From: Octopus sinensis
Taxonomy: Eukaryota
NCBI RefSeq assembly: GCF_006345805.1
Contig: NW_021834019.1
Location: 1 to 51,545 of the forward strand
DNA length: 51,545 nucleotides
Direction of reading: 5' to 3'
The position numbers and the translations under genes were made by a program. The notes beneath the pieces were generated by a model, which did no database searches, had not been told where the DNA came from, and saw only the letters and a list, made by a program, of their open reading frames with translations. Positions 1,697 to 45,630 of the stretch are shown in pieces. Each line of letters starts with the position of its first letter. Position 1 is the stretch's first letter.

Positions 1697-2114
1697 ATAT
1701 TTAAAAGCCGAAAAGCATAAGTTTCACATACAGTTCATACTTTATTTATGCTTAACAGCTGACCCATTAAGATATAAACATTATTAAATATTTAATTATA
1801 TAAATGTGATACATAATGAATTTGAATTAATTCAATTTAAAAGCTGTGTTTACCCATATCGTCAGTAATTTTATGTTATGTTTATCAGAAAACAGTTACA
1901 TGTTTCAATGCATCAGGTTGTACAACAATATTTCTGATTAACATAACACATAATACCCTTGATGATTTGGATGAACACAGCTTTTGAATTAATTTAATTT
2001 AATTACTTACCACAGTTGTGTAATTATACATTTGATGATGTTTATCTTACTGAAACAGCTGTTGAACACAAAGTGTAAACTGTATGGATTTTATGCTGTT
2101 TTTTTTTTAAATAT
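1697..2114. repeat. Long decayed inverted repeat, ~190-nt arms
   Basis: AAAAGCTGTGTT / AACACAGCTTTT, TGTTATGTTTATCAGAAA / TTTCTGATTAACATAACA, AACAGCTG / CAGCTGTT and CATACAGTT / AACTGTATG in nested order. Confidence 0.8.
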
Positions 2115-3036
2115 ATTGCTCCTAAATATCGTATGATGATTTATGGGTATATGAAATCGAGTATGCTGAGGGTATTCCTATGTGCACATTTATGTGAGTA
2201 TACATACATTAATATATGACTGCATGATTCGAATATACGTGTGTGTGCACGTGTGTGTGTACGTATTCATGTGCATGCAAATGCAGGTGCGCTTACACAC
2301 ACCGATATATATAACGACATATCATTCGCATAGATGTTTATACAAGCACATTAAATATATATACGCACATGTGTGTATGCGTGTGTGTGTGTTTTTATCT
2401 CTGTGAAAATATGTATAAATGTAGGTATGAAGGTGTGTATATATTCTTGTATGTACAGTTCTTTCTGAGTATACACACATCAATATACACATAATTCCTG
2501 TGTATACACAAGTGTTTCTAGGGGTACACATAAGGTGAGTGGCTCACTTTAAAATGTGTATGTGTGATGAGTATGTGTGTTTATGAGTGTGTATGTATGT
2601 GCGTGTATGTGCATGTATGTGTATGCGTGTATGTGTGTGTGCATGAGTGTGTGTGTGTGTGTGCGTGCGTGTATTTATTTGAATATGTATATGTGTGTAT
2701 GTGTATATGAGAATGTGTGCATGTGTGTGTATGAGTGTGTGTGTGTATGTGCGCGTGTATGTGTATGAGTGTGTATGTATGTGTGTGTGTGTGTGTGTGT
2801 GTGACTGCGTTCTTATCATATCTAAATATTTCCCTTGCTGATACATCATCGTCACCACCACAATTACGCAAAACATCATCATCACCACTGACGTCATAAC
2901 TAGCACTGCCGTCATCACCATCATCATCAAAGCAGCAGTAACACTATCATCAACATCACCACCATCACCCCCTCCCACAAAACGTGGGGCGTTTTACCTA
3001 TATCACAAACGCTTACCATTATTGTTCCTGTTGTTG

Positions 3037-3620
3037 AGGCAGCGAACTGGCCGCATCGTTAGAGCGTCGAACAAAATGTTTAACAGAATTTCTTTCAGCC
3101 TTACGTTCTGAGATCAAATTCTGCCGGGGTCGACTTTAACTTTCTTCCTTTCGGGGCCGATAAAATAAGTACCAGTCAAGTGCTGGGGTCGAAGTAATCG
3201 ACTTGTCCCCTCCCCACAAATTTCAGGCATTGTGACTATAGCATAGTAGACCCCCTCCTCTCAAATTTCGGGGTTTTTACCGATCGTAGAAAGGATTTAT
3301 TGTATTTCATTATTATACCAGCATTGTAGGTTGGAAAGCTGGCAGAATGGTTAGCGCGCCGGACGAAATGCCTAGCGGTATTTCGCCCGTCACTATGTTC
3401 TGAGTTCAAATTCCGCCGAAGTCAACTTTGCCTTTCATCTTTTCGAGGTCGATAAATTAAGTACAAGTGAAACACTTGGGTCGATGTAATCGACTAGTCC
3501 CCCTCCCTACCTCCCTCCCCTATTTCAAGTCTTGTGCCTTAGTAGAAAGGGTTATACCAGCATTGTTGGCTGGAAATCTGTCAGAATCGTTTGAGCATCC
3601 GTAAAAATGCCTTGCAGTAT
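3037..3620 (+). mobile_element. Head-to-tail cluster of SINE family A (about 3037-3300, 3331-3555, partial 3570-3620)
   Basis: A/B-box-like head, CTTTCATC..TTCG.GGTCGATAAA..AAGTAC core, and TTGTGCCT..AGTAGAAAGG tail repeated. Confidence 0.85.
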
Positions 3621-42215: not shown

Positions 42216-45200
42216 GGTGAGTATCAGAAACAATAAAGCAGAGGACTGAATAATATAAATGTAGTATTTAGTTTGAGCCTGTACGATTCGAGTTCAAATT
42301 GGGGCCTTCTTTCTCACTGAGCCAAATAAATGAAGTCTCATTTGTTTGTCATGGTGGGGTTTTTGTATAACCCCAGATCAGCTCCAATTGAGCCACAAGT
42401 CAGCCCAGATCCCAGCCGTAACCACCTCTTCTATTTGTATACTTAGTTCTATATTACCCAATGTGTCCTTCCCTTGTAAATTGGCAACATGTGATTTGAG
42501 GGAATATGGTTGCTATTTCTAATAGGCCACGCAGCTACTTGAAAGTGCCTTCTGTCATAAGCCTGGGTTGGGGTGAGTTACCCCGACATGTATATATCAG
42601 AAGAGCATTGTAGTACAGAAGTTATATATCCAACTCCAAGATATAAACTCGTTACCACTTATATATCTTGATGGATATATAATTTCACGAAGCAGAGGGA
42701 AAGAAATTATTCACAAGACGCACTAAGTTTATACAAGATTAAACGCTCTCTGACAACGGCTCTCAGTGAACCGCTTATCCTCAATTGCTCATAGTTCTTT
42801 ATTATGTAGCAATGTGTCAGTTCACTTTTAGTTACTTGAAGGGTGGTCAGAATCCTTCCCATAAGAAGAAGTAAAATAATAGTGAAATGAGAAATTAGGG
42901 AAAGCTTCTAAAAATTCAGAAAGTTTTTAAAAACCCTTTATATTCCGGACGCAAAAGCCTATCTTCAGAAGAACACATAGAGATGTGTATTAAAGGGATT
43001 TTTCAAAAACATTCTGCTTTGCCAGAAGCGTTTGTTTCTTCCAATTTCACTCATATATAATATATATATAATATATATATATATATATATTATATATATA
43101 TATATATAAGACTTTATATGCAGTAGAAGCAAGATTCAAGTAATACAGCCTTATATGTGTCATACTCAAAGTAAATACAACATTGAAAGGCAAATTTACT
43201 GTGGTATTCGTCCGAAGATAACCTTTCTAATAGAGGTGCGGTGTCTAAAAATACAGTATGGAAGGAAAACAAAAGTTTTCCCAATAATTTATATATGTAT
43301 ATATATATATATATATAGCTAAGGGAGGGAACCATCAGCTTCTAAAGAGTATATATATATATATATATATATAAGCGGAAGGACGTAAGGTAAATAGTTT
43401 CAAATCGTAACCGACACCAGTTCGATAGTTTTAGATAACTAAATTCGATGAATGTCACAAAATCGCACTTGCTTCTTCTCTCATCTTTGTAATCCTTTAA
43501 TCTTTTCTCTATGTATCATTTCACATTGTATATGTATAATGTCATGTATATATGTAATATGAGCCTTATTTGTGATATGTATGTATGCATATATGTATAT
43601 ATAGACAGATATTTTTAAAGAAATCTTCATATATATATATACATACTCATAAAAAAATGTAAGAAATGTGATTTAAAAATATAAATAATATATATAAGTA
43701 AAGAAACACATAAATACATATAATAATATATTTTTTAAAATAATATCTACATATTTACACATATTTGTTGGATGGCCGTTGACGCTCAGGAATTCTTCTG
43801 CCTGATATATATAAGGGCATTGAAGTGTGAGAATAGGGGTTCAACACCGCTATTGATGCAGAAATATTTTTTTTATTTATGGATCAAGAATGGTTCCAAT
43901 GGCTTGAAGCAGGAAGTTCTGCAATTATTTCAACGCCCCTATTAAAAATACTGATAATTGGCTTCTATATTGGATGCCCCTCGCTCTAATAATTGTCGAA
44001 CCTCTCGCAGAAAAGCTTTGGTAGCATTTTTAATCTACGATTAACGTGCGTATATACATATATATATATATACTATATATATATATATATATATATATAT
44101 ATATATATATATATATATATATATATATACACACACATATGCATGCATAGTATATGTATATGAAGAATGCGTTTCGAGTAGAAACCACATGTAGATTGGT
44201 TAGGTTAACTTGGTTTCGATTCCTTTGCTTGGTTGTAAGCAAATGGGCCATCCTTCGATGCCACTGCATTAATGAGTTATACCAGAAATGCAATATATGA
44301 AATATATTATATATAAAATACACACACATATCAACACACACATACATCATATATATATATATATATACATATATATATATATATATATATATATATATAA
44401 TATATATATATAATTAATTATAAGGGTGAGAGAATTGATACTAATTTAATAGTATATCTATTCAACACCAAGTGGCCTAGTGCTCCGATTAACTGGTGCT
44501 AGAGTGAGCCATATAGTGACCACTCTCTTATATATTTATATATATATATATATGTATATATATTTATATATATATATGTATATATATATATTATATATAT
44601 ATATATAATATATATATATATATATATATATTATATATATTATATATTATATATATATATATACTTGTTTATTCGACCCAGTGTACTCATGTTGATTGTT
44701 ATAGCCACAACGCTTGCCCATTCTCTCCGCCCTCTTCAGATTCCTGTCGAGCTTGTGACAATACATATATAGTAGAGAGAGAGAGACAGACAGAGAGACA
44801 GAGACAGAGAGTTTGTTTTTATGTCAATTCGCTTTTAAATCAATTTTACATTAAACTGAAGGATTACTCAATACTTTTTTTTATTGAAGTACACATTTAT
44901 TAATTTTTGCAAGTAAAGATTGATAGTGACTTCGAACTTTCGGTTTCCTCGCCTTCACTAAACCCTACCTAAATACTTACATTTATGGCAATACTTATAG
45001 CCTACTTAATTTGGGTAAAAGCACTGTACTTTTACAAGAGATGCGAATATTGCAGTAATACGGCGTTCTAACATGTATATCCAAGTTAAGTAGATTATAA
45101 GGATTGAAATTCAGTATTTAACTGCTTCTGTCACGTATGTGTGTGTGTGTGTGTGTGTGTATGAATATAATATATATATATATATACAGAAACGAGAGAA

Positions 45201-45385
45201 AAAGTAAGAAATACTAAAAAAGAATGTGATAGCTTATTGAGACTTATCCAGATCTGAGTGAGCCTGTACCTATCTGAGGAGACGTAGGAGGGCGGAGAAA
45301 ATCCAGAATACCAAAACACTGGGTCATATACACGCAGAAGAGCAGAATAAAAGTAGAAATTTGGTTACAATTCTTGTATACAAAT

Positions 45386-45630
45386 ATCATAAGTTACATA
45401 ATATTCAGTTGTGTTTCACTAGTGTATACTAGTATGCTATGCAGTAATCGTTACATAGACGATCGTATAATCAACCTATAATACCAGATTGTCAGCAACG
45501 AAGTAGATTATTTCTTTCTTCTGATGATCTGATGTTATTGGGTCATAATGCTACTGTCTATGTAACGATTACCGTATAGCATACCTGTATATACCAGTGA
45601 AACACATGTAATAATTATGCAATTTATGAT
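45386..45630. repeat. Imperfect inverted repeat (weaker extension to about 45335-45680)
   Basis: TGTGTTTCACT...GTAATCGTTACATAGAC / GTCTATGTAACGATTAC...AGTGAAACACA. Confidence 0.9.

Follow-up and report, generated by a model that had tools for sequence, protein, structure and literature searches.

A contig of the Octopus sinensis assembly (RefSeq GCF_006345805.1, NW_021834019.1) raises the question of how one short stretch of an animal genome came to carry a dense series of palindromes that have hardly any sequence in common. The window analysed here is the entire contig, 51.5 kb (51,545 nt) of a 2.72-Gb genome, in which an earlier note made from the letters alone had listed 13 inverted repeats, numbered here E1 to E13 by position (an additional one being E14). 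It had ascribed them either to fully palindromic, non-autonomous transposons targeting (TA)n or to palindrome formation from local DNA at TA tracts. We find that most of them (nine of the 13) are, with a probability of about 0.8, 5′-truncated insertions of several families of Penelope-like elements (PLEs), the 3′ end of the element being present twice, head to head, at or in a TA repeat, and that two others, at 34507 and 42618, are likely of local origin. The remaining two, E2 and E12, stand outside both groups.

All 13 listed foldbacks lie within introns of a plus-strand cadherin-type gene, whose exons in the window returned no match from Pfam. Each of the 13 could be aligned arm against arm near the coordinates given for it, at identities of 71-95%, the arms measuring only 19 bp in E9 (39853) and 28 bp in E10 (42618). 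After masking of microsatellites, which account for 22% of the window, a scan for foldbacks with a score of at least 30 returned ten, made up of nine of the listed elements and the new E14, compared to 0, 0, 0, 0, 1 and 0 in six local shuffles scanned in the same manner; the elements at 6525, 31150, 39853 and 42618 fell below the threshold upon masking. A (TA)5 tract is found no more than 30 nt from eight of the 13; random intervals gave 1.6 on average, and none of 5,000 simulations reached eight. Sharing of sequence between elements was restricted to two matches of 20-24 nt. The foldbacks are thus real, of graded divergence, devoid of a common internal sequence and associated with (TA)n, all as the earlier note had it, and the association exceeds the random expectation. 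The extents it gave them locate the arms, but not symmetric units, in that the homologous unit extends past one arm as a tail and the true boundaries are accordingly wider (Table 1). Graded arm identity is consistent with neutral decay after insertion, and the young foldbacks fold into helices of 44-49 bp.

Own-genome searches were performed for 12 elements (all listed ones except E2), the best 40 candidates usually being scored for each. All 12 have relatives, 11 of them belonging to families and one having few. The most complete picture came from E3, the youngest element, which yielded 1070 genome candidates, many of the best 40 scored being 98-99% identical over the arm. Copies of E3 are asymmetric: one arm reaches (TA)n at a fixed base, and the other continues into a conserved tail before (TA)n is reached. 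Outward foldbacks were present in 23 of 33 distinct E3 loci, with spacers of 20 to 4430 nt; a tail of ~130 nt was found on one side in 22 of the 23 and was missing from one. When the arms were measured against the long copy L044, their outer ends lay either at the 3′ end itself (0 nt) or 129-134 nt away from it, and the inner breakpoint differed for each arm. (TA)4 followed 45 of 57 E3 arm ends, against 2.7% of control positions.

Long copies of the E3 family enclose an open reading frame (ORF) for a reverse transcriptase (RT) and a GIY-YIG endonuclease (EN), and in L044 they do so between inverted arms of 570 bp that are 99% identical. The ORF, read from L044 and L057, displays RWK (in a frame-shifted portion of L044), DKT and CxCx5C, a GIY-YIG domain without CCHH, and CxxC/CxH. 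Both copies of the ORF are broken by stops or frameshifts; four intact proteins match pieces of it with E-values of 1e-38 to 1e-33, aligned over RT and EN. In Pfam, the ORF pieces matched RVT_1 (E 0.02) and GIY-YIG (E 0.008-0.02), both below the cut-off, and the four relatives gave nothing at the cut-off. The same set, namely RWK, DKT, CxCx5C, no CCHH, CxxC and CxH, characterizes the Hydra clade of PLEs, whose insertions are nearly always in (TA)n (PMC8557442, section 11). From its motif set and its (TA)n insertion, the E3 family is likely to be a Hydra-clade PLE, and E3 is the element for which the Hydra type is demonstrated at the level of predicted protein motifs. In E3, the outer ends are fixed at two positions and the inner ends are independent of each other, with TA flanks and a linked ORF. 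An Asn-rich stretch lies between RT and EN in this family (L044:2590-3500 and L057:2533-3045). At loci L002-L005, E3-family foldbacks have been duplicated along with the C2H2 zinc-finger genes of a tandem cluster.

The sense arm of E3 also carries a predicted type I hammerhead ribozyme motif (Table 1). This motif was found in 41 of 42 E3-family loci, the descriptor matching 31 of 33 on the sense strand and none on the antisense strand, and 99% of the cells in its stems pair. As the strict descriptor missed most old copies, a relaxed one was then used. A core on the outward strand was seen in relatives of E1 (4/17), E7 (11/18), E8 (8/19), E9 (6/14), E11 (12/24) and E13 (12/15), and no antisense core was found in any of these families or in that of E3. 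The core was absent from the families of E6 and E10. Searched against Rfam, the whole window gave microsatellite-driven microRNA matches, none of them at the gathering score among the 150 of 375 matches listed. The first pair of stem II is mismatched (U-U or A-A) in several families (alignments of E7, E8, E13 and E1), and E4 and E5 differ at core positions 3 and 8. Two further hammerhead-like sequences were noted in the window: a core with a four-pair stem at 11723-11760, outside the listed foldbacks and with one relative at 69% (L232), and a descriptor match with a long second stem at 32062 on the minus strand, beside the TA tract 31831-31893.

The other elements assigned to PLEs share this anatomy to varying degrees. 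Genome candidates numbered 260 for E1, 386 for E4, 353 for E5, 1044 for E7, 2154 for E8, 51 for E9, 193 for E11 and 104 for E13, the best 40 being scored in each case. Among the relatives, foldbacks made up 5/17 (E1), 4/19 (E4), 5/18 (E5), 13/18 (E7), 10/19 (E8), 2/14 (E9), 8/24 (E11) and 4/15 (E13), or 74 of 177 when these families are pooled with that of E3. The short arm stops at a family-fixed point in E3, E5 and E7, and (TA)4 directly followed 85 of 260 arm ends overall, compared to 2.7% of control positions. Support from linked ORFs is graded. It is clear for E5, with a Hydra-type ORF upstream and in the same orientation at 7 of 19 loci, and for E7, with such an ORF in 2 of 19 loci (L096 and L105, ending 226 nt before the arm) plus L063. 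It comes from a single locus each for E1 (L085, seen with filters off and lost with filters on) and E4 (GIY-YIG upstream on the same strand at L198), and E8, E9, E11 and E13 have the hammerhead core only. Some candidate ORFs were judged by eye, and ORF matches on the outer side of the arm (L210, L215 and L235) were excluded as links. Extension by 5.5 kb of 40 one-armed copies of E1, E8, E9 and E13 revealed no further close ORF link. With a linked RT/EN ORF, a one-sided tail and foldback copies, E5 and E7 are likely Penelope-like; from their strand-specific hammerhead core and their anatomy, we infer that E8, E9, E11 and E13 are PLE-type as well. The tail of E11 is interrupted by a long terminal repeat (LTR) insertion, E10, and continues to the left of 42617.

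To place the window in its genomic context, foldbacks were also counted in a blind sample of 40 stretches of 10 kb (400 kb). This sample contained 31, against nine in the 51.5-kb window, which is thus ~2.3 times denser, and 13 of the 31 lay within 30 nt of (TA)5, compared to 2.4% expected. These counts indicate that the foldback pattern is genome-wide. Of the bases sampled, 2.1% fall in the 31 foldbacks and 1.0% in those of at least 85% identity. One locus of the sample, L361:1964-7114 (G000:C1:99997964-100003114), is a palindrome of 5.15 kb and 99.4% identity whose centre falls in the RT of a second Hydra-type family. It has 614 open codons counted from this centre, a hammerhead-like motif, TA at both ends and, at one of them, a tail of ~145 nt.

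A number of results weigh against reading most foldbacks as PLE insertions. Covariation in the E3 hammerhead stems stayed within that of shuffles (50/500 for pairing and 42/500 for score), and Rfam reported no hammerhead in the two short stretches submitted to it. The canonical core was present in only 1 of 19 relatives of E4 and in none of 18 of E5, where an altered core occupies the same stem layout. No ORF link was found within 1.5 kb for E8, E9, E11 or E13 (26-35 loci each, searched with a Hydra-only profile), and (TA)4 followed none of the aligned ends of E9 (0/22), E11 (0/32) or E13 (0/19), whose queries may end early. In the blind sample, a Hydra-type ORF link was seen for 4 of the 31 foldbacks (L323, L338, L353 and L360), most of the 31 having at most five relatives in the 1.67 Mb compared and power being low; one of the 31 passed the hammerhead descriptor (2 of 9 in the window did), and core-only matches were outward in three cases and inward in five. 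This scarcity of hammerheads and ORFs means that the share of PLEs genome-wide is not established. Finally, some E3 loci are top matches to a short-foldback query, which inflates the near-symmetric class in the counts of inner ends given below.

How a PLE would come to be inserted in this form can be outlined. The PLE endonuclease would nick both strands within (TA)n, and each nick would prime one cDNA, the first at the end of the RNA tail and the second at an internal site. Both cDNAs would end early and then be joined head to head; should both stops fall within a few hundred bases of the end, a short foldback would result, and its neutral decay after insertion would give rise to graded ages. 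The two fixed arm ends and the independent truncation of each arm favor such twin priming, which is also in line with experiments in vitro on PAc, a Poseidon PLE of the lizard Anolis: both strands are cut and extended, and RT has two start sites, one on either side of the tail, as proposed here for E3 (PMC11167929). PAc further shares with E3 an AT-rich target and a hammerhead in its pseudo-LTR (pLTR), but belongs to another clade, has starts 30-40 nt apart, and its inverted product was not assayed (PMC11167929). Alternatively, the inverted arm of a PLE insertion could result from snap-back self-priming of a single cDNA or RNA (PMC3846280). The inner ends of the 22 E3 copies measured bear on this: they are equal within 10 nt in 5, as a snap-back would have it, but unequal in the other 17, in either direction (tailless arm longer in 9, tailed arm longer in 8), and the tail may belong to either arm, shorter or longer. 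The L361 palindrome folds exactly at a self-complementary centre, which suggests that self-priming also occurs. Set against the two internal start sites and the cutting and extension of both strands in vitro, snap-back as the general route is possible but doubtful.

That most of the foldbacks are palindromic miniature inverted-repeat transposable elements (MITEs) or foldback DNA transposons inserting into TA repeats appears very unlikely. The resemblance is genuine, since such transposons are also short and multi-copy, with inverted arms and sharp ends at TA; E6 does descend from a MITE, and some blind-sample foldbacks appear symmetric. MITEs, however, have symmetric termini and a constant interior, whereas the PLE-type elements have a one-sided tail and inner junctions that are specific to each copy; their hammerhead cores are strand-specific, and long copies contain RT and GIY-YIG ORFs. 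For E3, E5 and E7, a MITE or DNA-transposon origin is refuted by the linked ORFs. The transposon proposed at the outset, with its targeting of (TA)n, is thus retained for most elements, its class being replaced by the asymmetric 3′ ends of PLEs. It is also improbable that most foldbacks were formed locally out of DNA already present, whether by template switching or by hairpin repair at TA tracts. Some blind-sample palindromes have no relative among the loci compared, and E6 and E10, described below, have the features of local events. Against a local origin as the general rule, 74 of 177 family relatives are foldbacks too, the short arm ends of E3, E5 and E7 are family-fixed, and the divergence between arms is about equal to that from relatives, as would be the case had both arms been acquired on insertion. 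On present evidence, a local origin fits about two of the 13 elements (34507 and 42618).

The arms of E6 are 95% alike, compared to 72-87% for its relatives (all 34 candidates having been scored), and its arm was mirrored in none of 18 relatives examined. Relative to 13 of them, 18 private changes are common to both arms and only three and two are arm-specific, from which it follows that the mirroring took place after this copy had diverged or that its source was an unseen subfamily. The parent MITE, which we take to be of Tc1-mariner/pogo type, is ~195 bp long with short terminal inverted repeats, and both of its ends are visible in most aligned relatives; because the window copy is without the right end, E6 is regarded as a rearranged MITE copy. 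An assembly artefact was rejected, contigs of runs X1 and X2 crossing the centre; one contig extends 31 nt beyond it in both directions and shows no difference, and one of the runs may be from the source sample. No RNA data set was listed as containing E6, and raw DNA run X7 yielded 0 reads in the ~3% of it that was scanned. E10 is flanked by 5-bp direct repeats (42617-42621 and 42867-42871) inside the tail of E11. Its relatives carry internal sequence where E10 has an inverted copy of the LTR end, and one of them, L245, contains pol-like fragments and has its direct repeats at a distance of 5.7 kb. E10 likely originated from a template-switch deletion; for E6 as for E10, local template switching on another repeat is the likely source of the foldback.

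Table 1. Coordinates of the host gene, foldbacks and related features in the 51.5-kb window.
Feature	Position	Strand	Details
Cadherin-type host gene, 3′ part	841..46515	+	exons ~841-1121, 13875-13932, 46201-46515
E1, putative old PLE-type foldback	1673..2135		left arm reaches (TA)n tract ending at 1672
E2	6525..6747		short arms, mostly (TA)n centre
E3, 5′-truncated insertion of a probable Hydra-clade PLE	15178..15600	+	(TA)n both sides; full-length relatives L044 and L057 with RT and GIY-YIG; inverted tailless arm 15178-15316, sense arm ~15319-15467, tail ~15468-15597
Predicted type I hammerhead motif, E3 sense arm	15335..15440	+	core 15342, GAAA 15422, predicted cut after 15433
E4, putative PLE-type foldback	16599..16895	+	family with internal microsatellite and variant core
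E5, probable PLE foldback	31150..31433	+	tail to 31433; variant hammerhead-like core
E6, mirrored MITE part	34489..34754		first 141 bp of ~195-bp MITE; cut off by (TA)n
E7, probable PLE foldback	35147..35407	-	tail 35147-35200; hammerhead core 35302-35308, minus strand
E8, putative PLE-type foldback	36461..36810	-	tail on left; hammerhead core
E14, foldback new to the list	36987..37200		71% self-match
E9, short inverted arm and family copy	39833..40637	+	family copy 39833-40131; second direct copy 40373-40637, core at 40382
E10, Ty3/gypsy-type LTR end	42617..42871	-	with primer-site remnant and inverted 25-nt LTR-end copy
E11, putative PLE-type foldback	42867..43054	-	minimal hammerhead core 42962-42968
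3′ end of a further hammerhead-bearing family	44812-44958	-	several relatives with inverted copy upstream
E12, few relatives	44970-45120 (feature 44812..45135)		abuts hammerhead-bearing family 3′ end
E13, putative PLE-type foldback	45383..45785	+	tail on right; core 45521, GAAA 45599

Among the remaining elements, E2 and E14 had no relative among the loci compared, neither having been searched genome-wide, and no hammerhead was seen in E14. By eye, window positions 37905-37990 are a single arm of a family, embedded in a long TA array, and this family makes a TA-flanked foldback elsewhere (L334:1478-1741). The 3′ part of a reverse transcriptase of a long interspersed nuclear element was recognized at 50372-51371 on the minus strand, where Pfam gave no match. 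An exon-like open stretch of 71 codons at 11357-11569 was covered by none of four relatives of the host gene.

Much of the anatomy described above has precedents. PLEs with truncated inverted copies, with tails and hammerheads, and with insertion at TA targets have already been described (PMC8557442). In the Hydra clade, which includes Hydra-1_Obim from Octopus bimaculoides, RT is followed by GIY-YIG with the same motifs as in E3; further features in common are (TA)n targets, a hammerhead close to the 3′ end, an inverted copy accompanying 5′ truncation, and a tail on one side (PMC8557442). E3 differs in its length of ~4.8 kb, its 570-bp inverted arms and its Asn-rich insert, Hydra-clade elements being "generally <3 kb", and in its tail of ~130 nt, published PLE tails measuring 30-40 nt (PMC8557442). 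The entry for Hydra-1_Obim in that paper reads "no pLTR", and the hammerhead row of this element is unlike those found here; four short motifs of our families were not found in the supplement. Few Hydra families are described in that paper, whereas several occur here in one 51-kb window. The Penelope elements of Adineta vaga resemble the octopus elements in their head-to-head inverted pLTRs, junction palindromes, optional tail, Asn-rich inserts and AT-rich targets, but are of low copy number, with a 31-bp tail and visible target-site duplications (PMC3846280); in octopus, each family has candidates by the hundreds or thousands, and no duplication can be read within (TA)n. What is new here is the diversity and density of the families, the long tail, and the combination of two arm ends at fixed positions with truncation that is independent for each arm. 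In O. vulgaris, an annotation from 2026 reports 31 recently active Penelope-like families (PMC13282606), and its repeat library may already classify those of the window.

Octopus has been reported to have an exceptionally high predicted duplex fraction and exceptionally high hyper-editing (PMC5625713). In that study, octopus is omitted from the analysis of repeat classes, and Penelope is heavily edited in lizard. Our literature search, which covered sources other than subscription papers, Repbase and Dfam, returned no paper linking octopus foldbacks or editing to PLEs. A link between the foldbacks and RNA editing is plausible, making them candidates for such a role. More tentatively still, the Hydra PLEs, known as a small and mainly cnidarian clade, may have radiated into many families in octopus to leave ~10^5 foldbacks that would be a main source of double-stranded RNA and hyper-editing, with E3 recording twin priming; the figure of ~10^5 is extrapolated from the 31 foldbacks in the 400-kb blind sample and counts all foldbacks irrespective of the share of PLEs.

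An odd pattern is thus for the most part explained by a known class of elements, and short palindromes at the TA repeats of cephalopods risk being misfiled as MITEs or unknown repeats. With hundreds of copies, the young E3 family offers a setting in which counts of junctions could separate twin priming from snap-back. The long perfect duplexes of octopus have been reported without a named repeat, and the foldbacks described here provide a concrete candidate.

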